A stretch of DNA of 44,802 nt from Cyanophora paradoxa CCMP329 (GCA_004431415.1 QPMI01000128.1:1-44802), one strand, 5' to 3'. Counted from the stretch's first letter, positions 8,561-44,802 are shown. Numbers and translations are program-made. The notes: generated from the sequence alone by a model not told the origin.

Positions 8561-8631
8561 ACACATAAAGGAAAACAAATATTTAACCCTCGCGTTCCGC
8601 TCAGGTTAAATATTTGTTTTTCTTTATGTGT
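8561..8631. repeat. 28-bp inverted repeat (hairpin) at the left boundary of the outer element
   Basis: ACACATAAAGGAAAACAAATATTTAACC (8561-8588) pairs with GGTTAAATATTTGTTTTTCTTTATGTGT (8604-8631), with one mismatch and a 15-nt loop. Confidence 0.9.
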
Positions 8632-8857
8632 TTTAATACAAATTTAATATGAATTTAACATGAATTTATAGATATTTTATATAAATTAAACATGTAATAA
8701 TATATATTTATATGTAATTATCGATATAATCATGATGAAATTAATGTACAATTCGATATAATCACGATATGTACAATGTAAAAATGATATGATCGCGATA
8801 TGTTCTATGTAAATCGATATGTTTAATTAATTAATAGTGTGATTCATTTAATGATAA

Positions 8858-9081
8858 GGTGGGGCGGTGGGGTCTGGTTGGGTCTGTTTTTCGAATTGCT
8901 ATAATTTTCTTGGCGTTCTAAATTTTTCTGAAAAGTGACCCCACCACACCCCACCACCCCACCCTATCGATTAATTTATATTTCCATACCTAATTATATG
9001 TTAATTTCAATCTAATTTATATCAATTTGAAAGAGGGGGATGCTATAATTTATGGTAATGGTGGGGTGTAAGGTGGGGTGT
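8858..9081. repeat. G-tract/C-tract non-coding module, copy 1 (~225 bp)
   Basis: GGTGGGGCGGTGGGGTCTGG...GACCCCACCACACCCCACC...GGTGGGGTGTAAGGTGGGGTG; aligns with 9279-9504 and 44194-44422. Confidence 0.85.
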
Positions 9082-9136
9082 AATTTGTTACGGAATCAGT
9101 GCGGGAATATCTACTATATCGAAGCCGCATTTAACA

Positions 9137-9226
9137 TGTAAATACCGTTAGATCTGTACATGGTTGGGTGTAAATACCGTTAGATCTGTACACGCACACG
9201 TTAGATCTGTACATGGTTGGGTGTAA
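9137..9226. repeat. Three direct copies of CGTTAGATCTGTACA (iteron-like)
   Basis: Copies at 9146, 9178 and 9199, lying between the two G/C-tract modules. Confidence 0.85.
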
Positions 9227-9278
9227 TCTCGCACGTATTTGGGTCTAAAATACTATAATATCATATATTTATCGATAC

Positions 9279-9504
9279 GGTGGGGCGGTGGGGTCTGGTG
9301 GGGCATGTTTTTGAAATTCATTATTTTTTGGGATCCGCTTAAAATTTTCTGGAAATTTGACCCCACCACACCCCACCCTCCCACCCTATCCATTAATTCA
9401 TACATCCCACACTTATTTATATGTTAATTTCAATCTAATATATAGCAATTTGAAAAGTGGGAATGCTATAATTTATGGTAACGGTGGGGTGTAGGGTGGG
9501 GTGT
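9279..9504. repeat. G-tract/C-tract non-coding module, copy 2
   Basis: Direct, diverged copy of 8858-9081. Confidence 0.85.
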
Positions 9505-9528
9505 CATTCCTTACTGATTCACGTAAGA

Positions 9529-9927
9529 TTAACTCGGAAATCGCGCTACTCTATGCCTCTCCGCTCTCTCCAAACCGCTAAACATACACGTTATCCTACC
9601 TTCTATCTCCTCCATTATTACTGATGTCTTACGCTCCGCTTCCGTACCACAAGTAAAAATATCGATTGCTAACATTCCCTGATCTGAATAGCAATGAGCG
9701 GTTAAATGGCTCTCATCGAGAAGTAAAACCATCGCAAAACCGGGTGGCGAAACACCACCATCGAAAATCTCGCAATGCTTGTGAACTACTCGGATACCTT
9801 GCTCTTGAATAATAGACTGAAAAAATTGCATTAACCATTCTGTTGTGGTCTTCAAGTTTTCCAACCCCACCATCAATGGATGATCGAACTTGTAATCTAA
9901 CATTACATGGAAACCGCGATGATTCAT
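9529..9927 (-). CDS. speD: S-adenosylmethionine decarboxylase proenzyme, small prokaryotic class 1 type
   Basis: GFHVMLDY...PPGFAMVLLLDESHLTAHCYSDQGMLAIDIFTCG: E-S-H autocleavage site and DxFTCG motif; 132 aa. Confidence 0.9.
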   Translation of the reverse strand: MNHRGFHVMLDYKFDHPLMVGLENLKTTTEWLMQFFQSIIQEQGIRVVHKHCEIFDGGVSPPGFAMVLLLDESHLTAHCYSDQGMLAIDIFTCGTEAERKTSVIMEEIEGRITCMFSGLERAERHRVARFPS

Positions 9928-10410: not shown

Positions 10411-11241
10411 CTATGGTGCAGTATCTGACCCAAAAATGGGGAAATATCGGTTTGTACCGTAATACTCCGCATACGTATTCTGTTTCGCAATAGCATCAGT
10501 TCTTTCAGCATAAAGGATGCATTTGTAGATACCAAACCTGGTTGCTCTTACTAAAAACTGGTAATCTTCTAATCCAAAATTTACACCATGATATGCAATA
10601 CCGAAATTATCGTAAGGAGTGATAACCACCGTAATATTGGGTGTTCCACCTTCCACTTGACAAACAGCGTAAACATCTGGTGGAATATCCACGACTACCT
10701 TGTAGTGGTCTCCAATCTCTACAAGAGAATCAACTACTGATGTTTGTTCATTCACAACAATTGGGAAAATCTTAATAATATACGGTGCATTCATACTGGG
10801 GACGTAAGTGCGAATACGCGTTAAATTATCAATGGGATTGGGTTGATCATTTACGAAAAGAGGCGCACCAACAGCTCCACCAATCCGAAGACCATCACCA
10901 ATATACGCTCCCCCCGTCTTGCAGTTAATAGCTCCCGAACGAGATTCAAAAGAGTAAGTAGAAAGAGGATCGCCGTAACTGTCTGGGTCTCCATAATGGG
11001 CGCTAAAATTTGCATTTGTTACAAGAAGTTTTGTTGTCTTAACTATACCATTATTTTTATCACATCTGAGTTCTTGTAATCTCAGTTTATGGGTGGAACC
11101 GAAAGTATTCATGGTTGGTTGCACTTCTGTGGATTGGAGACCTTCCACATCATCAAATGTTGCATGTTGTAAAACGTGATTTGCTGGCGCAGCTAATGAT
11201 AGTTGCGGTGTTATTATTCGCTCTGGTGCTGGGGTAGTCAT
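10411..11241 (-). CDS. Putative structural/fibre-like protein, paralogue A
   Basis: 276-aa ORF; shares ELRxDKNxGxVKTTxLLVTNANF and GGAxxGxGxRxxG with the neighbouring ORF. Confidence 0.6.
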   Translation of the reverse strand: MTTPAPERIITPQLSLAAPANHVLQHATFDDVEGLQSTEVQPTMNTFGSTHKLRLQELRCDKNNGIVKTTKLLVTNANFSAHYGDPDSYGDPLSTYSFESRSGAINCKTGGAYIGDGLRIGGAVGAPLFVNDQPNPIDNLTRIRTYVPSMNAPYIIKIFPIVVNEQTSVVDSLVEIGDHYKVVVDIPPDVYAVCQVEGGTPNITVVITPYDNFGIAYHGVNFGLEDYQFLVRATRFGIYKCILYAERTDAIAKQNTYAEYYGTNRYFPIFGSDTAP

Positions 11242-11264
11242 TTTACATTAAAGTGATATATAAT

Positions 11265-12110
11265 TTATGGTGTGGGATCATCGATTACATCAGGTTCCGC
11301 ATAAAACCCTGTTTGAGAGAGAGTATCAGGAGTAACACCTCTAAGAGCTGAGACAGCAGCTATATCTGTTCTGATACCCATAACTGTAATTGTATATTTT
11401 CCAATATCTGTAACAAACAGATCATAGGTGAAATTGTTATTATAAACACAGAATCCTGTGCCAAAATGATCATATCCTTGAACACTGAAATGGTATCTGT
11501 GACCTGGCTGGTTATTGTTGGCTCTACATAAAGAAAGCATTGCAGAAGGAATGACCAACCCTCTCATTACTCTTTTGGTTCCTTCAATCAATTCAGAGTT
11601 TTCAAGTGTGACAGTATAACCTTGGTAAAACTGAATAAGTGGCTGTTGTGCAACTGGTATATATAATCGAATTCGTTGGGGATTCTCTACATTTTGTTCA
11701 AGAGTATCTGGGATATCATTGTATGCAATCGATGATGAAAGTTGACCGGATACACGACATCCACCGCCAAAAAACGCGCCACCTGAACGAATTGTAGCCG
11801 CCGCTGAGTTCTTATCGAAATCGAGAGCTTTTAAATCCACACTGTATGCATCAGGTCCTCCATTTGTCGGTTGAAAGAAGTTAGCATTAGTTACGAGTAG
11901 TCGAGTAGTTTTAACCACACCCGAGTTCTTATCGGCTCGGAGTTCTTTTACACGAATCATTGTATTTTTATCGAAAGAGTTACCGTTAGAATTGGGTCGC
12001 TCTGTGGATTCTAAACCGCGGACTTCATCATTAACTTCATGTTGCCGAAAGTGCATAGCTGGTGATCCAAGCGAATAAATGGGTAGTTGCACACGATTAT
12101 ATTCGCCCAT
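11265..12110 (-). CDS. Putative structural/fibre-like protein, paralogue B
   Basis: 281-aa ORF; N-terminal half clearly aligns with 10411-11241. Confidence 0.6.
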   Translation of the reverse strand: MGEYNRVQLPIYSLGSPAMHFRQHEVNDEVRGLESTERPNSNGNSFDKNTMIRVKELRADKNSGVVKTTRLLVTNANFFQPTNGGPDAYSVDLKALDFDKNSAAATIRSGGAFFGGGCRVSGQLSSSIAYNDIPDTLEQNVENPQRIRLYIPVAQQPLIQFYQGYTVTLENSELIEGTKRVMRGLVIPSAMLSLCRANNNQPGHRYHFSVQGYDHFGTGFCVYNNNFTYDLFVTDIGKYTITVMGIRTDIAAVSALRGVTPDTLSQTGFYAEPDVIDDPTP

Positions 12111-12458: not shown

Positions 12459-15400
12459 TTATACTGTGACATTTTTAATTTGGTCTATTTGATCTTGTAG
12501 ATCTTTGCATTTCTTAGACAATTCTTTAACAGCTTCTATGAGAACTGGAATTAAACCCGTGTATTCGAGAGAAAGGTAGCCATCATCTTTTTTAACATTA
12601 ACTACCTCTGGTATTACCTTTTGAACATCTTGTGCAATTAAACCTAATTTAGTTCCGTCTTTTTCACTCCCGATTCGTTTAAAACTCACTCCTTCTAATT
12701 TTTCGATTGCTGAAAGAGCGCCGGATATCTTTTTAATATCTGTTTTGTATCTTATGTCACTTCCTTGTGTTAAATATCCTCCTATCCACATCCAACCCCC
12801 ATGATACATGTAACAAATATCAGTATCTTGCTCATTTCGGAATACAAGGGGAATATCTCCCCCTCCTTTCAAATATGTAGAAGTTTGGTTACCGAAATGG
12901 ATACGATGGTATCCATCACTTGAACTAAACCAAGTCCCCACAGTTCCTGTTAATATATTTGGTTTACTATAAACATTATTCCAATGAATATAGCCGGTGT
13001 GACCACCATAACTATGTCCAACCCATATTTTCACGAAACTTATACCCATAATATGAATTCTTCCAATCTTTGGATATATCCGAATTCTTAAAAACCGATT
13101 CCCAAGGAAGATAGGGACATTATTTAAGCCGCTGTGGTTGTTGTCTGCTGATCCTGCATATGGATGATAGTTATTAACGGTTGTAATGAAAATCGCGTTA
13201 CCTTGTCTATTAATGCCCCAAATTTCGAAAAGTCGTGTGTTGCTCCAAGGTAAATGTGTTAAATATGCTGTGCCTGAATGCATTCCACTCGGTATATTGT
13301 ATTCAATCCAAGCCGAAGATGTCTGGTCATCAGTTTCATTATTATGTGCATAACCACCATAACTATAATACGGATCCCATGAGGTGCCTGTTCCAAATGT
13401 CCAACTTCCGGAATAACTATATGGATTATTTCCTGCAACAGCGCCATCCTCTTCATAAAACAATGGAATTGAATTACCATGTATTTGTAAATTTGTAGTA
13501 GCATTAATAGTAGGTGCTGTAATAGTGTTATTCACCCAAAAGTTACCGTTACCATATGATTTTAAGATTGCTGCATCCGCTGAGTTTCTAAATTCGACAG
13601 ATACACCATCACCATTTTCATAACCTCGAATATATGTGGTTTGATTATTTCCAAACCAAAACCGTGGAACATTATCAGTTGATTTTAACCAATTGTCCAC
13701 TGTCCATTTTGCCGTTCCTGGAAGGTCTGCGGCTGAGTAAAATGATGGTTTGCTAAATATATTATCCCAACTTATCAAACCATTCATGGGTGCTGTTCTA
13801 CCTACTTCTTTTGTCCATCCAAGCATTCCAATGTGAATTCGTCCTTTTTTGCGAAAATTCCAATATGTGAGAAATTCCCACAAAATACGGAAGTCCATAA
13901 TAAACTCGAATGCCAAGCTGTGTCGGCTGTGTTTTGAACATTTTGATACGTATTTACTCTCATAATATAATTCCATCGACTATTGCGGTATCCGTAAATA
14001 TCAAAATATCGCCCATTCGTCCAACATAAGTATTGTATGTGACATGTTCTCATTCCTGTCGGCACAGCACACTGCATATATCCATCGCCGCTTGCATCGT
14101 CTGTTTGGTTGCAATAAAATCCTTCTACTGGGTTATCTGTTGTGGGTTTCCATCCTGTGGACCAAGCGCCGGCTGGGAATGATACACCTGCGCTATTCCA
14201 ACCACTCACCACATCAAAATCGGAATATTTGCCGACAGGATTAAAAGCGATATTATCATAATGAATTAATCCAACATCATTATCGGTTGCTCTCTGACGA
14301 CTCCAACCAAATATACCTGTAAAATAAATGCGACCTTTAACACCTTTTACAACAATCTTTTTATAGAAATCACAGTTAATAGAAGTATATATAATAGCGT
14401 TATAGGTTCCATCTTGAATTCCGCTATCTTGTATTGCTTGATAGTGATTAACACGTTTTAGGAAATGCTGATATCCATTAACAGTTTCACCGTAAATATC
14501 GAAATATCTACAATTATGCCAATTTAAAAGTTGAATATAAAACTATTTCATACCTTCTGGAATTGTCCAACGCATCCAACAACCCGTAACATCTGCATCA
14601 TTCTCAGGTATGGTGTAACATCCTGTTTGTCCCGTTCTATGTCCTGTCCAATTAACAGTCCAATTATTTGCGCTTCTGTCTGTCGAAACCACATCTAATT
14701 GATCGAATTCGTAACCTTTCGGTATGGTGGTTCCACCAATTTGTAAAGTGGTAGCATTCACAGTTCCTGTTACAGTTCCACCTGTGAGAGGTAGATAATT
14801 CGCAAGTGCCGCCGCTAATTCTGCATCGGTTGCGTAAGTGCTTAAATCTGCTGAGGTAAGATATCCTTTATTGGTTAGGTAATCATCTGTAACCACACCC
14901 GAAAGGGTTGTATTGTGTAAGTTTTTCGCCGCCATTCTCTGATTGATTTCTAAGGCGCCACCTGATGTTGTTTTTATCCACGCCATCTCACATTTACCGT
15001 GATCATCTGTGGGTTGTCCTGCAACAGGAAGATAGTTTACAACTTTCTCCCTTGTGAATACTATCTTAGGTCTTGCTCCATCATATGCGCTTTGATCCGT
15101 TACATTTACTTGAATTGCTGCTGAAAAATTCTCTACTTGTCCTGTTTCACCCGGGTGATAATTCGTAACATAGATACTGGGGAAAGTATCATTTACTCCT
15201 ACATTGAAATCGCCACTATACACTCCATTTACGATTGGATCCCTGGGTAATCTTACTGCAAGAGTTCCCACCATCGGTGTGCCTTCTTGACCTGTAAACG
15301 ACCCATTGAGACTAACGTAATGATCATTCAAAAATAGCCTTTCATGTGTATTAATCGATTGGTAAAGTGTGACTCCATTAAAAACATTTCCGATTGCATT

Positions 15401-17882
15401 CAATTGTGCAAAAACTGGCTGTTCGTCTATTTCGCTCCAAATGTGACGATGTGTAGATGGTGTAAATGTTAGAGGGACATTATCAATGTCTTCCCAATCG
15501 TGCCTATGGGCGCTGGGTGGAAACGTTAGAGGGACATTATCGAGATCTTCCCAATCGTGCCTATGGGCGCTGGGTTGAAATGTTAAAGGCACGTTATCGA
15601 GATCTCCCCAATCGTGCCTATGGGCGCTGGGTGGAAATGTTAAAGGCACGTTATCGAGATCATCCCAATCGTGCCTATGAGCATCAGGTGGAAACGTTAG
15701 AGGGACGTTATCAAGATCTTCCCAATCGTGCCTATGGGCGCTGGGTGGAAACGTTAAAGGCACGTTATCGAGATCTAACCAATCGTGCCGATGGTCTCCC
15801 GGAGGGAAATTTTCGGGTGGATTTGGGATATTTTCCCATCGAAAATAATCCTCTGTAACAACTCTCGATATATCTTCATTGTGTATATTTTTGGCGCTTG
15901 CTCTTTGATTGATTTCTAATAAACCTTCACCAACTCCGCCATTATAATTCGTTTTTATCCATGCTACCTCACATCTTCTATAATCATCTCGATCTCCTAT
16001 AAAAGTATTAGGTAAAAGACGCTCCCGAGTAAATACTAATTTCGGTCTCGATTGGTCAAAATCACTAACATCTGTTACATTAATTTGTATTGCTGCATCT
16101 TTGTTATCATAACTGTCTGGGTCTAATGGAAGTGACGGTATCGGAGGTAATACTTCTGTCATCGGGATGTCCTCAGGGTAGTAACTTGTTAGATAAATTC
16201 CGGGTTTTGTCTCATACAAACCAAAATTACCGCTAACTTCTAAAATCCCATCTCTTCTGGGTGGTCTAATGAATAATTCGGCTTCCATTCCTGTGCCTGC
16301 TTCTATTCCCATGCGATTAAGGTAGTGGTCATTTAATTGTAATCTTTCTGGTATCTCAATGTTTTGATAGAGACTTACACCATGTTGAAAATCTGTTAAT
16401 ACATTTCCTGCGGATGCGAAAGTAGGTTGTAAGTCGATTTCGTCCCAATTATGCCTATGGTCTGCTGGTGGAAATTCAGGAGGTATGTTATCGAGATCTT
16501 CCCAATCATGTCTATGGTCTTCTGGTGGAAACTTTTCAGGTTTGCCTAAGATCTCATCCCAATCATGGTTGTGATCCTCTGGGGGAAATCGTTCCGGTTT
16601 ATTATTAATTTGCTCCCAATCAATGAATAACTCAAAAAGCTCCGGTTGTAATCCATCTGGTAAAAACTCCTCATCTGGTTCGTTGTTCTGCTCATACTCA
16701 AACTCTTGTGGATCTAAACCATCTGGTAAAAACTCCTCATCTGGTTCGTTGTTCTGCTCATACTCAAATTCTTGTGGATCTAAACCATCGGGTAAATACT
16801 CTTCCTCATTCGGATCATATTGATCATATTCATACTCTTGCGGGTCAAAACCGTCAGGTAAATACTCTTCCTCATCTGGGACAAATTGGTAATCATCAAT
16901 CTCTAAAATATCGATTTCAGGTGGTAAATATTGTTCGTCTATTTGTTTTTTTGGTTCTATAATAGGTTTGTTTCGCACCTGTTCCCAACTTACGATATGT
17001 TGCCCAAATGCTACCGTTTCATCAGCTGTATATTCTCTTCCTGGTTGTTTCTTTGGTGTAAGATCTGGTGGATCCCATGGAAGTGGAAAAGGAACGGGAA
17101 CAGGTCCGTAATGTTCAAATATTTCTCTGATTGTCTTCTCACTTACAAGTTTCTCACCGTTTGCGTACACATTACTACCATGAATATTTCGCCACTGTCT
17201 GGTTCGAATTCCAAGGTCTTTTGTGTTTGAAAACAAAGGAAGTAAATGTCTATCCATTTCGACAAGATCAGGATGTAAATGTATAGCAACAGGTTGGGTA
17301 GTACTACTATTAATGGTTATTGATGGTTTTTTTCGTGTACATCTTTCGGAATAAAGAACCCAAAAGGTTCATTTCTCGCAAAATCATAAGTAATGTCTTT
17401 TGGGTAAACATCATATGTGTTACATACTTGATTTGTAGTGGGAAAACTACCAACTTGCAAGATTTGTGATGACTCGACGATTGGTGTGCTACCTTCATTA
17501 TAAATTCTTAGACCTGTATTTTGTTTACCTTTCTCATCTTGTACATTAAAAATTAATCGCCCGCTATCGAAACGTGTGGGAATATCGGGATGGGTTTGAC
17601 TTGTTTTAAGTTTTCGTTGCCTTCTTGTTGCTTTGATTTCCGCAACCGCGTTTTTTTAACATTGCCCAAACTGAAAGCAATACTAACATCTTCTTTGTCT
17701 GGATCTGTTTGATTCAGCGATAAAGCATGTTCTCTGGCTTGTGTCTTACTGGGTTTATCGGCGCTCTGATCGATAGAAGCCGATCCTTTGATGGTTATAT
17801 TATCGAAATTCACATGTTTCGGGTTTGTTTTACCACCACTTCCTGGTATTGTTTGTAAATTTGCTGGATAATTGAAACTCAT
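12459..17882 (-). CDS. Giant (~1,800 aa reconstructed) fibre/spike protein with HxHxW tail-fibre repeats and C-terminal peptidase S74-type intramolecular chaperone; interrupted in this sequence
   Basis: ORFs 17553-17921, 14543-17257, 13802-14212 and 12459-13976 join into one frame if one A is added at each of three A-runs (17651-17657, 17327-17333, 13845-13850) and the in-frame TAG at 14543-14545 is read through. The C-terminus GSDIRYKTDI...GLIAQDVQKVIPEVV...LEYTGLIPVLIEAVKEL plus coiled coil is the S74 signature. Confidence 0.8.
15430..15830 (-). repeat. Coding tandem repeat, 57-bp unit (HRHDWEDLDNVPLTFPPSA), about 6.5 copies
   Basis: Seen in both DNA and translation; three related units also lie at ~16440-16620. 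Confidence 0.9.
16635..16880 (-). repeat. Coding tandem repeat, ~66-bp acidic unit (PDEEFLPDGLDPQEFEYEQNNE), about 3.5 copies
   Basis: Seen in both DNA and translation. Confidence 0.85.
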
Positions 17883-17931
17883 CCCTGCATGCTCTACATA
17901 TAGAGATTTATTAAATTTCAATAAAGTAAAG

Positions 17932-19491
17932 ATGCCTCAAAAAATTGTTTTAGCGTTGTCGGGCGGGGGTGCGCGTGGTATCATCATAACAAGGTTACTA
18001 ACAGAAATTGAAAATAGAACTGGTAGACGTATAATAAATCTTGTTGATCTTGTAAGCGGAACATCCACAGGTGGTATAATTGCTATTGGGTTAAACATCA
18101 GACATCCTGAGATGCCCTATGAACCAAAACTAACCGCTAACGATTTGCATAATATATATCTTACACAACTTCCGTTAATTTTTGCGAATCCACGAAATAT
18201 CATCGAAAATGCTCTTTTTAATACAAAATACGATGTTGCACCATTGGAAAGTGCGATTTACTCAGTTACTGGTGAATCGCTTATAAAAGATTCTCTAAAA
18301 GACATTGTGATTACATCATTTGATACTCAATATATGAAACCAATATTTATAACAAACGATAACAAGTACAATTTTTTGCCGAATAAAATAGTAGCGCGTG
18401 CTACATCTGCTGCTCCTACATACTTTTCACCTGTAAGTGTTGTAGATTTCAATAATGGCGTAATTGCTTCTCTGATTGATGGCGCAATTTCAGGAAACAA
18501 TAACCCAAGTGTATGCGGTTATAGTCATGCAAAAAAGATTTATAATGATGATGATGAAATTATAGTTATAAGTATCTCTTGTGGTGAGGTTGACGCAAAT
18601 TTAGAATCTGAATATTTCGGATATGCTTATGAGACTGTGAATAGCTGGGGTATTCTTTCATGGATTGCTTCAACAGAAGGAAGCCCATTAATTAATATGC
18701 TAATGGCTGCAAGCGAACTATCGGCTCTTGATAAGATGGAAGAATTACTACCTCCAAATCTTGACCAAGGATATAATAGATATTATCGCCTTTCTGTTCC
18801 GCTTCCAAATGATATAGTTCGATCACTTGATGATACTTCTAAGATACCTGAAATGCTCACATTCACTGAGTCGTATATTGCTGCAAATGACGCTATGATA
18901 AATAGACTCTGTGAGTTACTTGTAACAAACTACGAGATTAAGAACCCTGTCAGATCATATGTATCATCCACTCTTAATAACATACCTCCCATCGATGCTA
19001 ATTGGTATCTTCTGCCGGATAATGCGTTTACCGCTTCTTCTGCAAAATTCGGAAAAGAGGCATTTAAAGCCCGTCCATCATTAACTGGATGGGAAGCGAA
19101 TGCATCCGCCATAAACGGAGTATGGGAAACACCTACTGAATATTTGCAAATTGCTTTTCCATATACATTTGAGGTCGCTTCTATAATTGCGTATGGTTCA
19201 GGTATAACAACTGCCTTTATTAAGACGTTCAATGTTGCGACATTGCAAGATGGTTTAACATGGTCATTCATTAAATCTGATGGTGTAAATAGAATCTTTG
19301 TGTGTGAAAATATAAATAATGCTAATAACTCTGGAGATGTATCATATGCTACGGGTTTCCCACTTATAATTAACGATGAATTTAATATTCGTTATTCTTT
19401 GAGAATTCAATATATTCGAATTTATCCATTAGTATATATAAATGCTCCAACTATGAGAGTCGATGTGACGGGTTCATTTATTAGAAATTAG
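17932..19491 (+). CDS. Patatin-like phospholipase fused to a C-terminal discoidin (F5/8 type C)-like domain
   Basis: Patatin motifs LALSGGGARG, GTSTG (GxSxG), ATSAAPTYF and LIDGA. C-terminus LPDNAFTASS...W...EYLQIAF...DGLTW...YIRIYP...MRVDVTG. Likely ATG at 17932. Confidence 0.9.
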   Translation: MPQKIVLALSGGGARGIIITRLLTEIENRTGRRIINLVDLVSGTSTGGIIAIGLNIRHPEMPYEPKLTANDLHNIYLTQLPLIFANPRNIIENALFNTKYDVAPLESAIYSVTGESLIKDSLKDIVITSFDTQYMKPIFITNDNKYNFLPNKIVARATSAAPTYFSPVSVVDFNNGVIASLIDGAISGNNNPSVCGYSHAKKIYNDDDEIIVISISCGEVDANLESEYFGYAYETVNSWGILSWIASTEGSPLINMLMAASELSALDKMEELLPPNLDQGYNRYYRLSVPLPNDIVRSLDDTSKIPEMLTFTESYIAANDAMINRLCELLVTNYEIKNPVRSYVSSTLNNIPPIDANWYLLPDNAFTASSAKFGKEAFKARPSLTGWEANASAINGVWETPTEYLQIAFPYTFEVASIIAYGSGITTAFIKTFNVATLQDGLTWSFIKSDGVNRIFVCENINNANNSGDVSYATGFPLIINDEFNIRYSLRIQYIRIYPLVYINAPTMRVDVTGSFIRN

Positions 19492-20785: not shown

Positions 20786-20970
20786 CTTTACTTTATTTTC
20801 AATATATTAATAATGGATAATCCGGTTTGGACAGAACACCCGATACCAAACTACTTTGAAATTGCACCGACAGACCCGGGGTTAAAGTGCATATGGTTGT
20901 TAAATCTGATCCGAGGTATATTATTGCTTGGGGATCGCAAAAATAAAAAGAGAAGTATTGAACAAGTATA

Positions 20971-30123: not shown

Positions 30124-30175
30124 TCTGTTTAATAATGTAAATTAAAAATTTCTTTTCGTATTTTAAACATAAGAC

Positions 30176-32261: not shown

Positions 32262-32700
32262 ATGGAGAGCGCTTTTCACGAGCGTTCCGGCGCTTTTTTC
32301 AGATTTTAGAGGCGATGATCTGGTGAAGAGTTACGATTATTTCCGTACTTCCGGTAGTTCGTGTATATATGCACATATATATACACTTTTTTACCGGAAA
32401 TTCCGTTCGCGTCAAACGGCAATCAGGAAATTTCATCTGCATCATCAATGAGTCTTCTGCAACCTATCGACATCAACACTCATTCGCAGAGTTCCATCGA
32501 CCTCAACACTGATTCATAATTCTATCTGCATCAACAATCATGGACATCATCGAAATCATCGAAAGTCAAACCAGAGTACGAGTTTAGTATCGAATACAAC
32601 AATCACTGATGTTGCGTATCGAATACAACAATCATCACTCTTCGAAATCGTCATCGAAATCTGATTGGTCGACGTCGTCATTGAAATCTAACAGACAACT

Positions 32701-32980
32701 TGTCGCATCCGACATTATAGCGGATGCTCATTTATATGTGAGCCGCTAGGGCTCTAGATCACGTCAGCCTTCGAGCTGCTGGACCGACGGCGCCTAGGCT
32801 AGTTAGAGCGCCGCGGTCACTTGTATTCGTGTCGGGGTACGCCGTATCTGGACGGGTACACCCAGTGAGTTGGATCTTAGCGACGACAGCAGTGACACTC
32901 GCCATTCCCCGCCCTGCCGAGCTTGCACTCCGCACGGGCTTCCGCGCGCACGATTAGACACACTAATCTCGCACGCGACA
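32701..32980 (+). repeat. 5' LTR (280 bp)
   Basis: TG...CA ends with a 6-bp terminal inverted repeat; direct copy at 39387-39667. Confidence 0.95.
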
Positions 32981-32998
32981 GGCGCCACTGCCGGGAAT
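32981..32998 (+). promoter_or_regulatory. Primer-binding site, probably tRNA-Asp type
   Basis: GGCGCCACTGCCGGGAAT immediately after the LTR. It resembles the tRNA-Asp PBS TGGCGCCGTTGCCGGGGA of plant Athila elements; the leading T is absent. Confidence 0.7.
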
Positions 32999-34239: not shown

Positions 34240-34518
34240 TGTCGCGTGCGAGATTAGTGTGTCTAATCGTGCGCGCGGGAAGCCCGTGCGGAGTGCAAGC
34301 TCGGCAGGGCGGGGAATGGCGAGTGTCACTGCTGTCGTCGCTAAGATCCAACTCACTGGGTGTACCCGTCCAGATACGGCGTACCCGACACGAATACAAG
34401 TGACCGCGGCGCTCTAACTAGCCTAGGCGCCGTCGGTCCAGCAGCTCGAAGGCTGACGTGATCTAGAGCCTAGCGGCTCACATATAAATGAGCATCCGCT
34501 ATAATGTCGGATGCGACA
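34240..34518 (-). repeat. Third, inverted copy of the LTR
   Basis: Reverse complement of 32701-32980, with a PBS on one side and a PPT on the other. Confidence 0.95.
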
Positions 34519-34882
34519 ACTCCTCCTCTCGGATCCCGCGTCCGCGCGGGTCTAAATAAATACATATCAACCGGCTACTGCCGGGAATCGAAAAAGGCTC
34601 AACGTCCGTCCGTGGCCGGCAACTGCCGGGAATAGAAAAGACACCAAGTCCGGCTATGTACATGTCCATGCCCGCGTCGACTGCCGGGAATAGAAAAGAC
34701 TGATGCCCGGCAAGTGCCGGCACGACTCCAGCGTGTAGTGCCCAGGGGCGAGGTCCAACTTCGGGCCGGCGGCCCAGGCAACCCGCACGAGGCGAGCGGA
34801 AGGGACGGAAGCCGAGGGGGCCCTGCCCTCATCGCGATTGTGCAGCACGTTAGCTGCAAAGGCACACGCTGCAACAGCAACG
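34519..34882 (-). repeat. Inverted copy of the element's PPT and 3' untranslated region
   Basis: Reverse complement of 39032-39386. Confidence 0.92.
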
Positions 34883-35358
34883 GAGGCGCCATTCTGCCGG
34901 AATCGAACCTTCAAGGGTCGCTGGACTTCCAGGCTCTGCCCGCGCCGCGCGCCTCGCCGCGCCGCCTCGCATAAGCTTAGAGAGATCCGGGACGAGCTTT
35001 CCGGGCGACCGCCACTTGTGGCGTGCTACGCTGCACACTTCGGCCGCGTCGCCTCTGGGCGGCTGATTGTGCTTCGGAAGTGACTCTAGTGTCCCTCGCG
35101 GGCTTCGGTGCATCCCCAGACCGAAGCGCACGCACGAGCTCTCGCGAGAGTCTCAATCATTGTCTGTGTCCTTCGCCGGTTGCACGCTTCGCGTCGCAAA
35201 CTGTGCCCCGGAGTCTGCCAGCGGCAGTTCTCTGAGTGTCCCTGAGTCGGTTCTCGCACGCCACGAGAAGACCGTGTCCCGGATCTGCAGTGCGCTGCAG
35301 ATCAAATCTTGCGCCCTGGCATTCTGTTCTCGTGGCTATACGCTGCAAAGAGAGCAAT

Positions 35359-36913
35359 ATGTCGAACACTTCTGAACTGATCAGTTCTGAAGTCCGTAGC
35401 CGGCTGTCTGCCCTCGCGCACATCGAGCCCGCCCAGGGCTATGCTGCTGTGCATGTGCAGCAACTCGCTGCTGGCTCCGCTGCGGCGGATGATGATCCCG
35501 TGCGGATCGCATTCCTGCCTGCAAATCCTCGCCTCGCCGATGGCGACCGGTTCCGGAAGGACGTGCGGAACTTCCAGTCGTCCCTGCCGACTAAGTACTT
35601 GTTTGGCCCGATTCTGCCGGTAGCCAGGAGTACTCAAAGTCAGAGGCGCTAGCCGGAGTGATTGTTGGGCGGATCCGCCCCGGAGCTCTCCGCGCTGAGA
35701 TTGAGCGCAAGCGCGACCTCTATGAGGCCTCTGTCACTGCCCTCGAGCATGACCGCACCAGGCTCGCTCGTCTCGAAGCTGTCCGGCAGACCTGCGGTCC
35801 GCCGAGGATGATGCTGCTATCCTCGCGCTGCAGCAGAGCTGCGTGCGTGATCAGGCCTCATCGTGGCCGTGCGCGACTCGTACTTGCGTGCCCCCGGGCT
35901 GCTTGACACGATCACTGCGTGGATTCATGAGACCCGCCCGCACGCGGCCCGCCGGCTCTCACTGAGCCGTACACGGGTGAGGACCCCGCTCGTGGCACGA
36001 CTGGTTCTTGCCCCTCGTACGGCACACGCTGCCGCCGGCCAGCAGTTTGCTGCGTACTACGCGGACTGCCTGCGCACCGCGCTCGAGGCCCGCTCGACGA
36101 GCGAGGACCTGAATATCAGAACCTTGATGTTCGGATGGCCGGGTTCGCCCAGGCGAACGAGCGCACGCTGCGCGAGTTCCTCACGGCGCTGCGGCAGCGC
36201 CTCCTCGCCAATAACGGCGCTATCTCGCCGCTTGAGCTTGACAATATTTTCGTCGAGCAGTGCAAGCGCCACGGCTGCCGCGCCGTGTTCCCGCCTGCGC
36301 TGGCAGCTGCCGATCGCGAGCTGCCCGAGGCAAAACGGACCCGTATCCTGCAGGCACAGTTTGCCGAGGATGAGTCCTCGTCCGCCGGCACCCCTGCCGC
36401 TGCACGAGCCTCGAGCTCCTTGGCCCTGCTGAGCCTCGGATGCAAATTCCACGGCCCAGCCCTCGATTTCTGCACGTGGGTCCTCTTGGCCGTGCAGTCC
36501 CGCTCGCCTGCCGCTGTTGCGGAGGTGCTGCGGCGCATGTCCGAGCTCGGGTACCCGGAGTACCCCCCTCAGACTGCTACGGGTGCTCGGATGACCCCAG
36601 CGTCCCGTTGAGGCGCGACGTCATTGGGCAAATGTGTGCCCCAAGCGCACCCCGTTCGCCCCAGTACGCCCTGGGTCCGCCGCGGCCAGTACTATCGGCA
36701 AAAGCGATCCCAAGAGGATGCTGCCAACAAGCACGAGTACTGGTCCGACGAGGAAACCAGGACCCAGACGAAGTCTGCGGTCGCTGCGGCGAGGCAGGGC
36801 ACCACCACAGTGCCTGCCCGACCCCCCACACGGGCTGCTCGCTCGAGCTCTGCGCTTCCCGCGCCTCTAGCTCAGCGGCTCCACCCGCGCGCCCTGCGGC
36901 GGAGCGTGAGTGA
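35359..36913 (+). CDS. gag: Gag-like protein with CCHC zinc knuckle, frameshifted in this sequence
   Basis: A chain of overlapping + strand ORFs begins at MSNTSELISS and includes helical segments (ERTLREFLTALRQRLL). It ends with CGRCGEAGHHHSAC (CX2CX4HX4C) at 36776-36817 and lies downstream of the PBS. Confidence 0.7.
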
Positions 36914-39374
36914 GCAAGTGCACCAGCTGCACTAGGGTCTGGCTGGCTTGGGCAGCCGCCAGAAAAGCCCTGCTCGTAACCGCGATCCGATTTTCGCGGA
37001 GCCTGGGCCTCCCCTGCGAGAGCCCCATGTGTCGCTGTAATAAGCGGCCCATATACCTGCCTCTGAGCAGGGTGTATATTTGTACATTTGTACATAATTT
37101 CAGACGTCGGGGACGACGTCTTCCGAGAGGAGGAGTGAGCACGGGCATGCTGCACGAGCAGTGCAAGCGCTGCCGCTCGCCTCCCGCCCCGAGGCTTGCT
37201 TGAATCTGTGGCCGCTGGCCAAGATCGAATAGCACTCGCGAAAGAAGAGCCCCAATCGCGTGCTTTCGAGCACCCTGAGCGGCCACGGTGCCCCTCTTTC
37301 CGAGAGGAGGAGTACCTCTTTCGCTGAAGCCTGCGAAGAGGCGCACGGCCGTGCCGCAATTGCGAGCCCTCCTGCTTCCCTCAATTTAGATCCGTGGCCG
37401 GTGGCCGAGATCTGATCTCAACCCCAAGCGGGTACCAGTCTTTCGAGAGGAGGAGTCCCTCCGAGACTCTCTCGTCGAAAGCCTGCGATTTCGCGCGGCG
37501 CACTGCAGTTGCTGAGTGCGGCCATGGGCCTTGCGAAATCCAGAAATTAAAAGTGGCCTCAGGCCTTGCGGTCAGAGCTTCAAAGGCTTGAGCTGATCAT
37601 GAGCCGAGCCGCCAAGCTGCAGCTGCAGCTGGCCCTCGCGGGAGGCTTTGAGCTCGAACCCCCACACTTGAGCGAGCAAGCGGCCTTGCTGCCGTTGCGA
37701 GATGAGACGTGATCACGGAGCCTGAGCTCGGGATGCACCCTCAAGAGAAGCTTGATGCATATATGCTGAGGCACGATGCCCAGCGGCGACGCCTGATGGC
37801 ATGCCGTGAGCTTGACAGGCGGCCCGTGACCCCTGCAAAAATCGTGAGCCTCGACTTGAGCACAAGTGCCCTCGAGAGCTCGAGCCTGAAATAAGTCCTG
37901 GCGCGCCCCAGGCGGCAGCAATAGCAGCTCTGCCATGAGCTTTGCAGTTCTTTGAACTCAAGTCTGGTGACGCCGCCAAGTTGGCGCCAGGCCGCGCGGT
38001 CTGTTCCGGATCATCGGATCCGGACTGAACGTTAGCGGGCGAGGGGCCAGTGCCCCGCCCAAAGACTGGTGAACTGCCGACGAGTTGCATCCAGGCGGCA
38101 CACTGTGGCTGCAGCCGATGGTGCGACGGGCTGCGAGCCCTGCTCACAAGCTAAGAGCTTTGAGACCGGCGGCCAGCCTGTTGAGGCGGCGCCAGAAGGA
38201 CCCCACGATCGTGAGTCTCGTCTCGCATGTGGCCGGCCCGGCCCCAGGCGCGGTCGTGACGGCGGGTGGTTCTGGCCAGGAGCGGCTTGAGAAAGCCGGC
38301 TCCAAGCCGCTCCCGCCCCACACGAGGCGAGACAAGAAGCGGCGATGCTGCCTCCGGCGAGCGAGCACAAGAGGCACCCGTGAAGGGTTGGCTGAGAAGG
38401 CCAAGCGCCGCGAATATCGCGAAAGTCCCGAGCAGAAGTGGTGCGCTGCGGGCGGCCGTTGTCCTTGAGCACAGCTCGGCACGGTGACAGGGCGGAAGAC
38501 CTTGCAAAGACTAGCCGAGCCCTAGGCACGCGCTTGCGTCTGCAGAAGGGTCGGGGCGGCTGTGACGCCGGTTCTGCCCGGGTACAGCGACAGGGATGAC
38601 AAATTCCCCTCCGTGTAAACCTGGTGTGGTACCAGGGCGCCTTGCGTCGGCAGGGTACACGCAGGCGGTCGTGACCGGGTTCCTGCCCCGGGTACGACGA
38701 CGGGGAACAAAAAATACCCCAGCAGGCTCCGCACCAGGACGCTTGGTGGCGGACCGCCTGAGAGGGCCACGTCCCTTTTAATAGATGTCACCCGCGGTCG
38801 GGCAGCGGTACTCCCGTCGCGCAATGGCGTGGAAGGGCACCTTGTGGCGCGTTAGCCTCGCCCTGGAGATTCTAGCTCCACCGCCGTCGGGGGATCCGAT
38901 CCGACGCCGTGATAATGCAGTGAAGGCACGGTGTTGCCTGAGCAGCGGCGCTAGTCGAGCTGCTTAGCCCTAAGTTTTGGACGGGCATTTCGCTGTGGGC
39001 TGCTGAGCGCTGTCGCGAGCGCTGCGCCCCGCGTTGCTGTTGCAGCGGTGCCTTTGCAGCTAACGTGCCTGCACAATCGCGATGAGGGCAGGGCCCCCTC
39101 GGCTTCCGTCCCTTCCGCTCGCTCGTGCGGGTTGCCTGGGCCGCCGCCCGAAGTGGACCTCGCCCCTGGGCACTACGCTGGAGTCTGCCGGCACTTGCCG
39201 GGCATCAGTCTTTTCTATTCCGGCAGTCGACGCCGGGCATGACATGTACATAGCGACTTGGTGTCTTTTCTATTCCCGGCAGTTGCCGGCCACGGACGGA
39301 CGTTGAGCCTTTTTCGATTCCCGGCAGTAGCCGGTTGATATGTATTTATTTAGACCCGCGCGGACGCGGGATCC

Positions 39375-39385
39375 GAGAGGAGGAG
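39375..39385 (+). promoter_or_regulatory. Polypurine tract
   Basis: GAGAGGAGGAG, one base upstream of the 3' LTR. Confidence 0.85.
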
Positions 39386-39386
39386 T

Positions 39387-39667
39387 TGTCGCATCCGACA
39401 TTATAGCGGATGCTCATTTATATGTGAGCCGCTAGGGCTCTAGATCACGTCAGCCTTCGAGCTGCTGGACCGACGGCGCCTAGGCTAGTTAGAGCGCCGC
39501 GGTCACTTGTATTCGTGTCGGGGTACGCCGTATCTGGACGGGTACACCCAGTGAGTTGGATCTTAGCGACGACAGCAGTGACACTCGCCATTCCCCGCCC
39601 TGCCGAGCTTGCACTCCGCACGGGCTTCCCGCGCGCACGATTAGACACACTAATCTCGCACGCGACA
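39387..39667 (+). repeat. 3' LTR (281 bp)
   Basis: Direct copy of the 5' LTR, followed by the TSD CAACT. Confidence 0.95.
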
Positions 39668-39900
39668 CAACTCTCGTTATATATACCGCATATATACACA
39701 AAACCTCCGTATCTCGTTTGGTCAAACGGAATTTCTGGTGAAAATGTGTGTATATATGCACATATATACACGGAGACGTCGACTCTATCGCCGGCAGTCA
39801 AGTTGAGTCAACCGATAAACGCATGTAACTCTTCACCAACTGCTCCGTTTCTAATTCTGAAAACAGATTCGGAATCGTCGGACGCCCTCTTCAAGGTTCG

Positions 39901-40280
39901 AGTATAATCTAAGAAGTCGTGCATGATTTATTTTTATTAAACTTTTGGTTAAAGTAACTGTGAATCGTGGGAGAAGAGGCATTCTGCCGACTTAACGAAG
40001 TCACCGCGCGAAAAAAGACGAATTCTTACTGTGTATCAAGCGGAATCGATCGTACAGTGGTCTTCATACTGTGTATCGAGCGGAATCTTGCGGAATTGTG
40101 GGAGACACCCGCATAAAAAGATGAGTTGGATCGAGTGAATCGATGAAGATCGGTCGTGAAACCGAAATTATCGATCGTGACACTGAGCCTTACGGTGATT
40201 TCGATTAGACTCGATGCTGTTACGGTGAATGGTAAGGATCCGCGGATTTAATTGTTGGAGACACCGCGCCAAGCTGAGCT
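39901..40280 (-). repeat. Right terminal inverted repeat of the inner PLV
   Basis: Ends ...GGAGACACCGCGCCAAGCTGAGCT, followed by CTGTG. Confidence 0.95.
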
Positions 40281-43200
40281 CTGTGATCTCTCCCATCGAT
40301 AATCTCCAATCGGTAGTGGTTGGCTAAGTACATAACCATAAAGATTATTCGCGTCCAACAATACTATGTGATCATCCGGTTCTTCTACTTTTGCATATCG
40401 TGTGGGCATGGTAGCAAATCCGCCGCGAATGGCTTTCTCAATAAATTCGTATTTCTCTACATCATCGATAAGTTCAATCTTAACTTTCGTATGTTTGAGC
40501 ATAGCGTCCCAGGATAAACCAGGTGCGCTAACGTAATGTGCGGGATCTAATCCATATTGAGAATATGCAAGTTTACGGAATTCTTCGAATTTAGACATAA
40601 GATCATCGACATTCTCACTTTGGAAATCCATAAAATGTGATGCATCTATGAATTTCCACATGCCCCATTGAAGGGATAGGTATTGATTAAAGTTCTTGCT
40701 TAAAATTTCAACACGTAGTTTATCGTCTTGTTGTGCGATCTTGCGGAATATCCCGTGTCCACATTCATCCATTTTCAACCACAATTGCTACTTTGCTTGT
40801 GTTTGAGATTCGGCGATGAAGGTTACAGTTTCGGCATGCTTTCCCGATAAAATCACCGGATTGGGACAATGATCGCGAACCGGGAAGTTTTCGTGGGTGA
40901 ATCTCTGAGAACAAATATAACAGTGTTTTGTTATCTTGTATTCTGCCTTTTGATCTTCAGTGAGTGGATGCATTGGGATATTTCTAAAAAGCGTTTCAAT
41001 TACTTCGGGTCTGATCTCTTGTAGAGTTGCAAAAGAGAACTGAGTGGATCATTTCCTTCAAAATGGTATAGTTTCATTTCTTCACCCATAACTCTCAGTG
41101 AGACTGCTTTAATCTCTCTTTTACTTCTCAGTGTATCTATTGCTACCGAATGATCTTCAATTTTAACATAACAGATCACAGGAAGCCAAACCGTTTTTCG
41201 TAGATGTTGTAGACGAATTCTATTGTACTTCCCGGCTTCGGACATTTGCCTTTGCTCTCCCTCCAATCGATACATCGGTTTGCTTCTGTATGTAGGTCTA
41301 ATTTCTCCTGAGTTCTGAAACGTGATAGACAGGTTTCACAATAGTAAATGCGCCCGTCACATGCTTTATCGAACGTGGTCTTTAAAAGACGATAAATGAC
41401 ATGATGTTATGTAGTGTCCCCTATCGTCTCGGTGTTTTCAATGAGTAAAAGGTTAATCTTGGTCTTTCGTCTTGGTTACTTGATTGATGAAGAGGATAAA
41501 AAACTGTTTCTCATTATCAGCACCGTAAATATTAATAGAGAGATCCGGGTTCAATTCTTCGAAACGATCGATTACCTCAGCATCACATGCTACCGGGAAC
41601 TGAATACCGTCAAAATTGAGTTCATTTAACCATCTGCGATATTGGTAAGGTTCGTTACTCTTATGTTTGTTAATGTCCTTCGATGAAGGTAAGCCAAAAT
41701 AGCATATTTAAAACAAATCTTGCCCATCGATATTTTTTACGTTTATTGTAGCTTTCTTGGATGCGATCCATTCGGGAGTTGCGAAATGTGCGGGATCTAA
41801 TCCATATTGAGAAGACACCGCGCATAAAAAGATGAATTGGATCGAGTGAATCGATGAAGATCGGTCGTGAAACCGAAATTATCGATCGTGACACTGAGCC
41901 TTACGGTGATTTTCGATTAGACTCGATGCTGTTACGGTGAATGGTAAGGATCCGCGGATTTAATTGTTGGAGACACCGCGCCAAGCTGAGCTCTGTGATC
42001 TCTTCCCATCGATAATCTCCAATCGGTAGTGGTTGGCTAAGTACATAACCATAAAGATTATTCGCGTCCAACAATACTATGTGATCATCCGGTTCTTCTA
42101 CTTTTGCATATCGTGTGGGCATGGTAGCAAATCCGCCGCGAATGGCTTTCTCAATAAATTCGTATTTCTCTACATCATCGATAAGTTCAATCTTAACTTT
42201 CGTATGTTTGAGCATAGCGTCCCAGGATAAACCAGGTGCGCTAACGTAATGTGCGGGATCTAATCCATATTGAGAATATGCAAGTTTACGGAATTCTTCG
42301 AATTTAGACATAAGATCATCGACATTCTCACTTTGGAAATCCATAAAATGTGATGCATCTATGAATTTCCACATGCCCCATTGAAGGGATAGGTATTGAT
42401 TAAAGTTCTTGCTTAAAATTTCAACACGTAGTTTATCGTCTTGTTGTGCGATCTTGCGGAATATCCCGTGTCCACATTCATCCATTTTATCAACCACATT
42501 GCTACTTTGCTTTGTTTTGAGATTCGGCGATGAAGGTTACAGTTTCGGCATGCTTTCCCGATAAAATCACCGGATTGGTGACAATGATCGCGAACCGGGA
42601 AGTTTTCGTGGGTGAATCTCTGAGAACAAATATAACAGTGTTTTGTTATCTTGTATTCTGCCTTTGATCTTCAGTGAGTGGATGCATTGGGATATTTCTA
42701 AAAAGCGTTTCAATTACTTCGGGTCTGATCTCTTGTAGAGTTGCAAATAGAGAACTGAGTGGATCATTTCCTTCAAAATGGTATAGTTTCATTTCTTCAC
42801 CCATAATCACTCTCAGTGAGACTGCTTTAATCTCTCTTTACTTCTCAGTGTATTATTGCTACCGAATGATCTTCAATTTTAACATAACAGATCACAGGAA
42901 GCCAAACCGTTTTTCGTAGATGTTGTAGACCGAATTCTATTGTACTTCCCGGCTTCGGACATTTGCCTTTGCTCTCCCTCCAATCGATACATCGGTTTGC
43001 TTCTGTATGTAGGTCTAATTTCTCCTGAGTTCTGAAACGTGATAGACAGGTTTCACAATAGTAAATGCGCCCGTCACATGCTTTATCGAACGTGGTCTTT
43101 AAAAGACGACTAAATGACATGATTGTTATGTAGTGTCCCCTATCGTCTTCGGTGTTTTCAATGAGTAAAAGGTTAATCTTGGTCTTTCGTCTTGGGTTAC

Positions 43201-43507
43201 TTGATTGATGAAGAGGATAAAAACACTGTTTCTCATTATCAGCACCGTAAATATTAATAGAGAGATCCGGGTTCAATTCTTCGAAACGATCGATTACCTC
43301 AGCATCACATGCTACCGGAACTGAATACCGTCAAAATTGAGTTCATTTAACCATCTGCGATATTGGTAAGGTTCGTTACTCTTATGTTTGTTAAGTCCTT
43401 TCGATGAAGGTAAGCCAAAATAGCATATTTAAAACAATCTTGCCCATCGATATTTTTTACGTTTATTGTAGCTTTCTTGGATGCGATCCATTCGGGAGTT
43501 GCGAAAT
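40103..43507. repeat. ~1.7-kb tandem duplication (40103-41787 and 41813-43507) covering the outer TIR part, the TSD and part of pPolB
   Basis: Near-identical copies that differ mainly by single-base indels, joined by a short linker. Confidence 0.9.
40281..41787 (-). pseudogene. Duplicated fragment of the outer pPolB 5' half
   Basis: YGLDPAHYVSAPGLSWDAMLKHT, IRGG, motif A LLDANNLYG, CYIC...VRDHC. Confidence 0.85.
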
Positions 43508-44144
43508 AACAACCGCCAACCGGCGCATATGACATAATGACACCTCTTAGTATTTCAATGCGTTGCAAACGGTAACTATCTACTTGGATCATTTCTTCTT
43601 GCATTTTCTGTAATGCTTTACGAACTTCGGTGTTAATGTTACGGGATTTAGTGATTACAAAATAATCGCTGTGTATGAATTTCGTTATAAAAGATTCGAG
43701 GATTTGCAACTTTGGTAAATCTACAAACGAAAGTTAGACGAACCTTAACCGCTCTTAGTTTGATCTAAGCGGGGTTTAATGCGTTGCGGTAGACTTGGTG
43801 CGATTCTTTCAAGAAAATCGATAGCATCTACAACTACTACTACTCGTTTCGGCGCGATAAGTTAACCATGAATACGCTTGATTCATTGCTTGTCCATCTT
43901 CAATGTCCGGGTCAATTGCTCCTAATCTTTGTCCTTCACCCATAAATTCCTCCATTCTCTGCATGCGATCATAAAGATCATTTGCTATTTCTGTGAGTTG
44001 ACCTAATCGTGGTCTTCTATCTAAAATGGCGCTTCTCTATCAAATTCCGCTTCGGTAATCTCCACCGGTTACTAAGAGAGTTCCTAACAATCCGATAATT
44101 TCATTTTTCTTTTCTTTGATGAGTCGATTAGTTTGGCGGGGCAT
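41993..44144 (-). pseudogene. 5' half of the outer Maverick-type pPolB (frameshift-rich)
   Basis: Starts MPRQTNRLIKEKKNEII at 44144. Contains GGCYFATPEWIASKKATINVKNIDGQDCFKYAI, INLLLIE...HY...FSRL, C2H2-like CETC...LH, endonuclease VII-like CYIC...VRDHC, and motif A DANNLYG. Joins 20971-22105 in frame across the TSD. Confidence 0.88.
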
Positions 44145-44193
44145 CTTTATTATAAAGGAACATTTTTATTTTGGATATTCAACGCGTTCGATA

Positions 44194-44422
44194 GGGTGGG
44201 CGGTGGGGTCAGGTGGGGCATGTTTTTTAAATTTTAGAATTTTGAGCGTCCCCAACTTTTCTTAAAATTTGACCCCCACACACACCACCACCTTCCCACC
44301 TTCTCTATATTACTTTATTCACATACAAATCAATCTATAAAATAGTTTATAAAAATAAGAAAATGCAAGGAGGTTATGGGGAGTGTGGTGTAGGGTGGGG
44401 TGTGGGTGTTTAGGGTGGTGTG
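44194..44422. repeat. G-tract/C-tract non-coding module, copy 3
   Basis: Same orientation and layout as the copies at 8858 and 9279. Confidence 0.75.
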
Positions 44423-44427
44423 ATTGT

Positions 44428-44802
44428 TCACGCTTCAACGTCGGAATCTTCGAATTTCGTCCCGGCTTTCTTGGCGGGAATCTTAGGGTTTGGTTCTTCC
44501 TTAATCGAAATCATCATCAATTAGCTTCAGCTTACGGAATTTCCGCCAACATTTTCGTTCCAGATGAAATGGTAGTATGGCTTACCATTTGCGGTTTTCC
44601 ACAAGAATGTATGAAGTGCCGCGCATCTCCGTATAGAAACGCTTACTGTTGTAATCGTTCTTATATATTTTCCGTAATGAAGGTCTTGAATAAACTCCCA
44701 TGTAGAAGCGAGACGGCTTAACTTACACTTGATTTCGGTAATCTCCCCACCATCCATTAACCACTTTGCAAACATGAGAATGATAGGTGCGGAGATTTGC
44801 TG
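44428..44802 (-). CDS. 3' end of a frameshifted gene entering from the right, possibly a primase-helicase C-terminal winged-helix region
   Basis: Frame fragments ISAPIILMFAKWLM, YNSKRFYTEMR, TANGKPYYHF and an acidic tail; only a weak pattern resemblance. Confidence 0.3.

Follow-up and report, generated by a model that had tools for sequence, protein, structure and literature searches.

The window analysed here is a stretch of 44,802 nucleotides (nt) from Cyanophora paradoxa CCMP329 (GCA_004431415.1 QPMI01000128.1:1-44802), and it holds three mobile elements placed one within another. A retroelement with long terminal repeats (LTRs) lies within a Polinton-like virus (PLV), hereafter the inner virus, which in turn lies within an outer element, likely also a PLV, inserted in host DNA. 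The levels differ in GC content: 0.63 in the host, 0.38–0.40 in the outer element, 0.42 in the inner virus and 0.63 in the LTR element. We confirm this nested arrangement at the boundaries that had been proposed by a model from the sequence alone (the sequence-only reading). The inner virus spans 22106–40280, begins and ends with AGCT, and carries terminal inverted repeats (TIRs) of approximately 390 nt (22106–22495 and 39901–40280; 361 identities, 19 mismatches and 10 gap columns), the right one also being present in short-read contigs; it is flanked by the target-site duplication (TSD) CTGTG at 22101–22105 and 40281–40285. The LTR element (32701–39667, plus strand, ~7 kb) has TG..CA ends and two LTRs, 32701–32980 and 39387–39667, identical at 280 of 280 aligned bases with one gap, and is flanked by the TSD CAACT at 32696–32700 and 39668–39672. 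The chance of a 5-bp agreement at a fixed position is ~0.0008 and ~0.0014 for the two TSD pairs.

The inner virus splits the gene of the outer protein-primed DNA polymerase (pPolB): in alignments with full-length pPolB relatives, the match stops at the right TSD and continues from the left one. The C-terminal part (20971–22105, minus strand) ends at the left TSD, and the N-terminal part with an Endonuclease VII domain (40286–44143, minus strand) is frameshifted in the assembly and partly duplicated. This duplication, a tandem one of ~1.7 kb (40103–41787 and 41813–43507; one mismatch, 26 gap columns), comprises the terminal 178 nt of the right TIR together with 1.5 kb of the outer pPolB, with a filler that matches 40536–40561, and hence carries a second TIR tip and TSD at 41993–41997. 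At this second copy the two halves of pPolB are in phase (493 bases to one side and phase 2 to the other), while the first copy is short of one base that is present in a short-read contig of run X2.

Short-read contigs provide further evidence on the junctions. Among 24 runs, 20 carry at least half of the words of 17500–27400 (17 studies, one organism label; one run may be the source of the window). Four runs were compared over 17000–32990, and two of them, X16 and X2, also over 39640–40350. All 30 bins were covered in each of the four runs, with many variants; thus, all three levels belong to multicopy families. The empty pPolB site, consisting of the left flank, a single CTGTG and the right flank, was found in at least two contigs of X16. 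A contig of X2 passes from 30 letters of the TIR into 70 letters of the outer pPolB, which is one letter below our bridging rule. The TSDs at both insertions, the pPolB frame continuous through the inner one, the empty site and the TIR/pPolB junction agree with the earlier claim that these are real integrations and not contig joins.

Without the LTR element the inner virus comprises 11,203 nt, 80% of them coding, with seven open reading frames (ORFs). The leftmost is an rve-type integrase (22470–23522, minus strand, profile match), whose third acidic residue is D, as in the relative L008. It is followed by a Tlr1-like fusion of pPolB with a superfamily 1 (SF1) helicase (1361 aa, 23522–27607, minus strand), assigned by helicase matches and motifs. 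The fusion has PolB-like motifs near residues 586, 717 and 834, kept in both of the two aligned homologues, and a Walker A motif near residue 938; its helicase half is RecD-like SF1 by profile. The three former motifs probably are PolB motifs A, B and C, according to our reading of the sequence, and the palm domain yielded no profile match and no fold. Next come two ORFs with unassigned function (84 and 254 aa, 27844–29188, minus strand, ORF calls) and a candidate minor capsid protein (300 aa, 29221–30123, minus strand) adjoining the major capsid protein (MCP) gene. This candidate has a weak pairwise match to an ORF of the viral contig L012 (E 9e-4 for the single pair), no homologues in a word-based protein search, and a single-sequence model with pLDDT 36.

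The MCP (408 aa, 30176–31402, plus strand) is assigned by an Atlas score of 0.98 with low recognition, by its predicted fold and by structure match. The model is a predicted double jelly roll (pLDDT 65, pTM 0.73), and its best structural matches are the PBCV-1 and iridovirus capsids (PBCV-1, E 3e-18). At the level of sequence the protein is almost isolated: it has six relatives among 1.84 billion representatives (23–40% identity), the sole named one being a glaucophyte protein in EukProt (~25% identity), and both the sequence search of the PDB and the word-based protein search returned nothing. The A32-like packaging ATPase (31539–32261, plus strand, Pox_A32 E 4e-12) lacks a hydrophobic strand of ~7 residues before the P-loop that is present in five of five aligned relatives, and hence this copy may encode a damaged ATPase, as judged from the alignment. 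The claim that every inner gene is intact thus stands for the reading frames, all seven of which are open, but not with certainty for the ATPase. No maturation protease was detected by profile among the seven ORFs, two of which are unannotated.

The capsid protein, packaging ATPase, rve integrase, polymerase–helicase fusion, TIRs and TSD together support the identification of the inner element as a PLV, of the Tlr1 type. Of 134 candidate viral contigs, one (L012) shares the replicase, with an rve integrase after it, and also encodes an ATPase. Searches for related loci with the inner MCP, the inner ATPase and the outer integrase found none, and the TIR-end pattern had no matches in metagenome contigs and three in viral contigs, none of which extended.

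Two observations concern variation among copies of the inner virus. The divergence between its TIRs is concentrated in the middle of the repeat (22279–22433 versus 39962–40109), and the contigs contain repeat-number variants in this stretch; thus, a part of the divergence is real. In 29800–32500 the depth over parts of the MCP and ATPase genes is several-fold above that of the replicase, and the contigs contain variant starts and a variant MCP–ATPase spacer. A more numerous family with a different replicase may share the capsid module of the inner virus, and it could be the outer family.

The interior of the LTR element (34884–39386, plus strand) consists of a frameshifted gag-like region, a 3' region and a purine tract at 39372–39386. 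A CX2CX4HX4C knuckle is present by pattern at 36776–36817, with a weak zf-CCHC_2 match (E 0.004, under the curated cut-off). Six frames, read through stops, gave no Pfam matches to reverse transcriptase, RNase H, integrase or recombinase, the sensitivity of this search being reduced by the frameshifts. As far as its sequence tells, this is a gag-only non-autonomous LTR element of the TR-GAG/LARD class, in line with the earlier suggestion that it is non-autonomous. An autonomous Ty1, Ty3 or BEL element does not fit, as there is no pol match in any of the six frames, and neither does a Ngaro/DIRS element, as there is no tyrosine recombinase match and the LTRs form an ordinary pair with a TSD.

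Between the 5' LTR and this interior lies a fold-back segment (32981–34883), identified by repeat analysis. It comprises ~2.3 forward and ~4.4 inverted 186-nt units, a third LTR in inverted orientation at 34240–34518, and an inverted 3' region extending to ~34883. In a contig of run X4 the LTR end joins position 34892 directly, skipping the 1.9-kb fold-back; thus, a plain form of the LTR element exists. Each 186-nt unit (32982–34238) contains A-box- and B-box-like motifs in antisense orientation and a motif resembling a primer-binding site, and the unit resembles a tRNA-derived piece amplified in the leader. It is called as a tRNA neither by ARAGORN nor by Rfam, and its predicted fold is other than a cloverleaf. 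No papers on inverted-LTR or autointegration structures turned up in a literature search.

The LTR element is inserted in a 667-nt spacer of the inner virus, that is, in non-coding DNA, as had been claimed. Within this spacer the insertion is flanked by a 48-nt AT-rich inverted repeat (32360–32407 and 39725–39772), whose left copy folds on itself (z -4.9). The LTR junctions, for which read support had been sought along with the TIR/pPolB one, were not confirmed in short-read contigs. Contigs of X16 and X2 run from non-LTR sequence into the spacer at 39667, which is where an empty site would begin; the bin 39688–39711 is fully explained, in each run, by two contigs without the LTR; and no join of the 3' LTR to the spacer occurs among the contigs listed for these runs, although contigs drop rare forms. 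The left junctions of the inner virus (22105) and the LTR element (32700) likewise do not appear among the contigs listed for the four runs.

The LTR element, placed in a neutral spacer, might use the inner virus as a vehicle, being cut out, copied and encapsidated together with the viral genome and so spread between cells. The insertion misses all seven ORFs (the chance of this is ~0.2) and keeps both TIRs, and the enlarged genome of 18.2 kb is inside the usual PLV range, the free relative L012, with the same replicase–integrase order, being on an 18.2-kb contig. A shuttle of this kind has already been proposed (PMC12220804, PMC8547959, 10.64898/2026.07.28.741278). On the other hand, the LTR element lengthens the viral genome 1.62-fold and is itself rearranged, the strand ahead of the P-loop is missing from the ATPase, and both spacer contigs listed for each run lack the LTR, so that LTR-free copies exist and are well represented. 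We regard transport of the LTR element by the inner virus as very unlikely.

The right-hand part of the window requires caution. To the right of ~33 kb, repeat copies differ by 1–4% indels and hardly at all by substitutions, and the share of the outer pPolB region in long open frames is 0.16, compared to 0.83–0.86 further left. Thus, this part is likely a poorly polished long-read consensus, and the many frameshifts in it are probably consensus errors. The fold-back and the duplication junction, moreover, are not confirmed by reads. One could hence suppose that the nest, in whole or in part, arose from repeated families as an artefact of the assembly or the library. The TSDs matching at both ends of both insertions argue against this, as do the empty site and the TIR/pPolB junction in short-read contigs; the filler of the duplication copies nearby sequence, and the inverted segment contains a join of the 3' region, LTR and leader, which is not expected of a simple fold-back read. 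An artefactual origin of the fold-back and duplication is possible, if less probable than a genuine one, while for the nest itself it is highly improbable.

The outer element is less completely represented. Its left end is inferred to be a 71-nt hairpin (8561–8631; z -10.2, 0 of 200 shuffles), at which the GC content falls from 0.63 to 0.38 and whose arm is unique within the window. This near-perfect terminal hairpin belongs to a pPolB-encoding element, and a hairpin primer would be unexpected next to a polymerase that is protein-primed. To the left (1–8560, plus strand, GC 0.63) lies host DNA with an intron-rich TPR gene and its flank (TPR_12, E 1e-19); the gene itself (1–7320) has many short introns, C-terminal TPR repeats and NPHP3-like matches, and apparently ends ~1.2 kb short of the outer element. 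A repeat search revealed two semi-palindromic units of ~255 nt at 8846–9521, and a third, diverged one in the same orientation at ~44170–44420, upstream of the outer pPolB. This third unit was rejected as the right TIR of the outer element, as it aligns far better in the same orientation.

The other genes of the outer element precede the interrupted polymerase. They are an S-adenosylmethionine decarboxylase (9529–9927, minus strand, E 7e-13), an enzyme of the polyamine pathway carried here by a Polinton-like element; two paralogues of 276 and 281 aa that share 33% identity (10411–12110, minus strand), with only a weak Atlas lead to Ig/fn3-like tail domains; a fibre of 505 aa bearing a Peptidase_S74 chaperone and a repeat-rich fibre-like protein of 904 aa (12459–17257, minus strand, profile matches), the latter (14543–17257) with 19- and 22-residue tandem repeats and one duplicated domain; a patatin-like phospholipase (17932–19491, plus strand, E 1e-16); and an rve-type integrase with a D-D-E motif (19488–20540, minus strand, profile match). 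The element continues from 44144 to the window edge at 44802, and its right end and TSD lie beyond this edge. The window holds no outer capsid or ATPase gene, so that the identification of the outer element as a PLV, asserted in the sequence-only reading, comes from its polymerase: among eight viral loci with related pPolB, seven have a Pox_A32 match and four an MCP match. Thus, the outer element is likely a PLV. In one viral contig (L004:6-12044) a Polinton-type pPolB that is a relative of the outer polymerase occurs together with a virophage capsid of the Sputnik type.

The sequence-only reading correctly listed the two inner levels, and its account was incomplete in that it omitted the split pPolB, the inverted third LTR, the 1.7-kb tandem duplication, the 71-nt hairpin of the outer element and the ATPase gap. 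We consider it fairly probable that independent insertions stacked here and were tolerated, as they struck viral rather than host genes.

We obtained rough numbers of units from depth, taking the shallowest contig as one unit and the contig totals as the genome size, with the reservation that contig depths are not copy numbers: ~6 for the inner virus, 33–39 for the outer element and 56–108 for the LTR element. With these numbers, at least one inner copy would land in the outer family by chance in 3–10% of cases, before selection and with other viral families excluded, and some LTR element would land in an inner copy in ~3%. Thus, there is mild enrichment at most, and selection against insertions in the gene-dense host could supply it.

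Several observations weigh against independent stacking. The exact triple is improbable at random: the chance that a given inner copy holds an LTR element is ~0.5%, to be multiplied by the above 3–10%, although the window was chosen post hoc. In X2 the unbranched contig joining the TIR end to the outer pPolB has a depth of 244, compared to 375 for the inner core (0.65x) and 707 for the TIR ends, and 0.65x exceeds what one junction among ~6 copies would give. In X16 the ratio is the same 0.65, from one depth bin. Local duplication may explain the excess; recurrent insertion or amplification of the composite is also possible. Finally, a preference of retroelements for viral DNA has a precedent, as the Ngaro retrotransposons of Cafeteria favour virophages (91% of type 1; PMC8547959).

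Alternatively, the inner virus might be a specialised parasite of the outer family, which either targets pPolB, by preference or at a specific site, or is amplified with it as a composite unit, and borrows the fibres and the lipase for entry. The inner virus has seven ORFs with neither fibre nor lipase, both of which the outer element has, and its 11.2 kb are below the 14–40 kb cited for PLVs (PMC12220804). The unbranched X2 contig fits this as well, yet only one locus has been observed, the window already holds this junction twice, and TIR-end contigs that stop exactly at 40280 are consistent with several different flanks. In addition, the rve integrases of mavirus-like elements have no sequence specificity according to PMC8547959, and breaking the polymerase of a helper would gain little, as the inner virus owns a replicase, a fusion of a type for which activity has been predicted (PMC11161782). 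Thus, we consider such specialised parasitism unlikely. Its strongest form, in which the inner virus would be a satellite of an endogenous PLV with a minimal genome and a new capsid lineage, repeatedly entering and disabling the outer polymerase gene and using the outer fibres and lipase, seems quite improbable.

For independent stacking, the following order of events can be proposed. The outer element would have integrated before the others; the outer-then-inner order follows from the sequence, as the inner virus splits the outer pPolB. The inner virus would then have been inserted by its own rve integrase, leaving the outer copy unable to replicate itself. The LTR element would have been copied and integrated by the reverse transcriptase and integrase of an autonomous partner elsewhere; as there are no substitutions between its LTRs, this insertion is recent, most likely very recent, with the inner virus already resident here. 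Error-prone repair or template switching would finally have produced the fold-back, which contains unchanged LTR sequence, and the junction duplication, which spans the inner/outer boundary and hence is later than the inner insertion. In this account, the enzymes involved, when the LTR element arrived and how repair proceeded are inferred. Most likely, the locus is decaying and has become a dead end, and a soft bias to AT-rich or silenced viral DNA may have added to selection.

All these elements are of known kinds, and so is their arrangement: PLVs that carry LTR elements, PLVs inside PLVs and a viral nest of three levels have already been published. Nests are common in protists, where five PLVs and nine virophages were described within other viral elements, along with a three-level case (10.64898/2026.07.28.741278). 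These nests of Halocafeteria seosinensis resemble the present one in having viral elements in viral elements with TIRs and TSDs, a three-level nest, transposons in viruses and, in some cases, terminal palindromes. In Halocafeteria, however, the invaders are MULE and LINE elements, the three-level case is a virus in a virus in a virus, and the palindromes are found chiefly on elements without pPolB, unlike the present hairpin, which belongs to an element with pPolB. No report of exactly the present arrangement, with an LTR element inside a PLV that is itself inside another PLV, or of a PLV family targeting another one, was found in a literature search, which covered mostly open papers without the supplements where such loci may be listed.

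The inner virus shares with Tlr1 of Tetrahymena and the pPolB-S1H PLVs (PMC5499653, PMC11161782) the MCP, the ATPase, the rve integrase and the polymerase–SF1 fusion with altered motif C, a fusion described in the former paper and later predicted in the latter to be an active polymerase; as noted, the maturation protease was not detected in it. It differs from this type in its size of 11.2 kb, its seven ORFs, an MCP with six distant relatives and a minor capsid protein that is only a candidate.

The claim that retrotransposons occur within endogenous virophages agrees with the Ngaro elements of Cafeteria virophages (PMC8547959), which likewise are GC-rich retroelements of ~6–7 kb inside a small endogenous DNA virus; they differ, as far as described there, by a tyrosine recombinase, split repeats and a measured preference for virophages, compared to TG..CA LTRs with a 5-bp TSD here. 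Further parallels are a Ty3/Gypsy element in a Hydrurus PLV (PMC10120064), a Copia element found in a PLV of Guillardia and the numerous GC-rich retroelements of cryptophyte PLVs (PMC12220804), which also are GC-rich, have direct repeats, reside in AT-rich PLVs and are sometimes intergenic, the intergenic placement of retrotransposons in PLVs being ascribed to purifying selection (PMC12220804). Those elements are known by their reverse transcriptase, whereas the present one has no pol match, an internal fold-back and a third LTR. In the LARD/TR-GAG class (PMC13570524) one finds the same identical LTRs, purine tract, TSD, length above 4 kb and at most gag, and copies that are reshuffled or have three LTRs are common there; the three-LTR copies of that class are described as tandem, while the extra LTR here is inverted.

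Thus, the locus is a clean example of parasite stacking in a eukaryotic genome, dated by the order of insertion, and it shows one route by which an endogenous PLV is knocked out, namely, the insertion of another PLV. Each of the three families is multicopy in a single organism that has been much sequenced, and the inner virus adds to the Tlr1 type a very small representative whose capsid protein has almost no known relatives. If the inner virus does target the outer family, the locus would provide a handle on the conflict between endogenous PLVs and on the need for a helper. Were the inner virus a true satellite, one virus would be parasitising another within a single host genome, without a giant virus as the target, and the LTR element could ride along.

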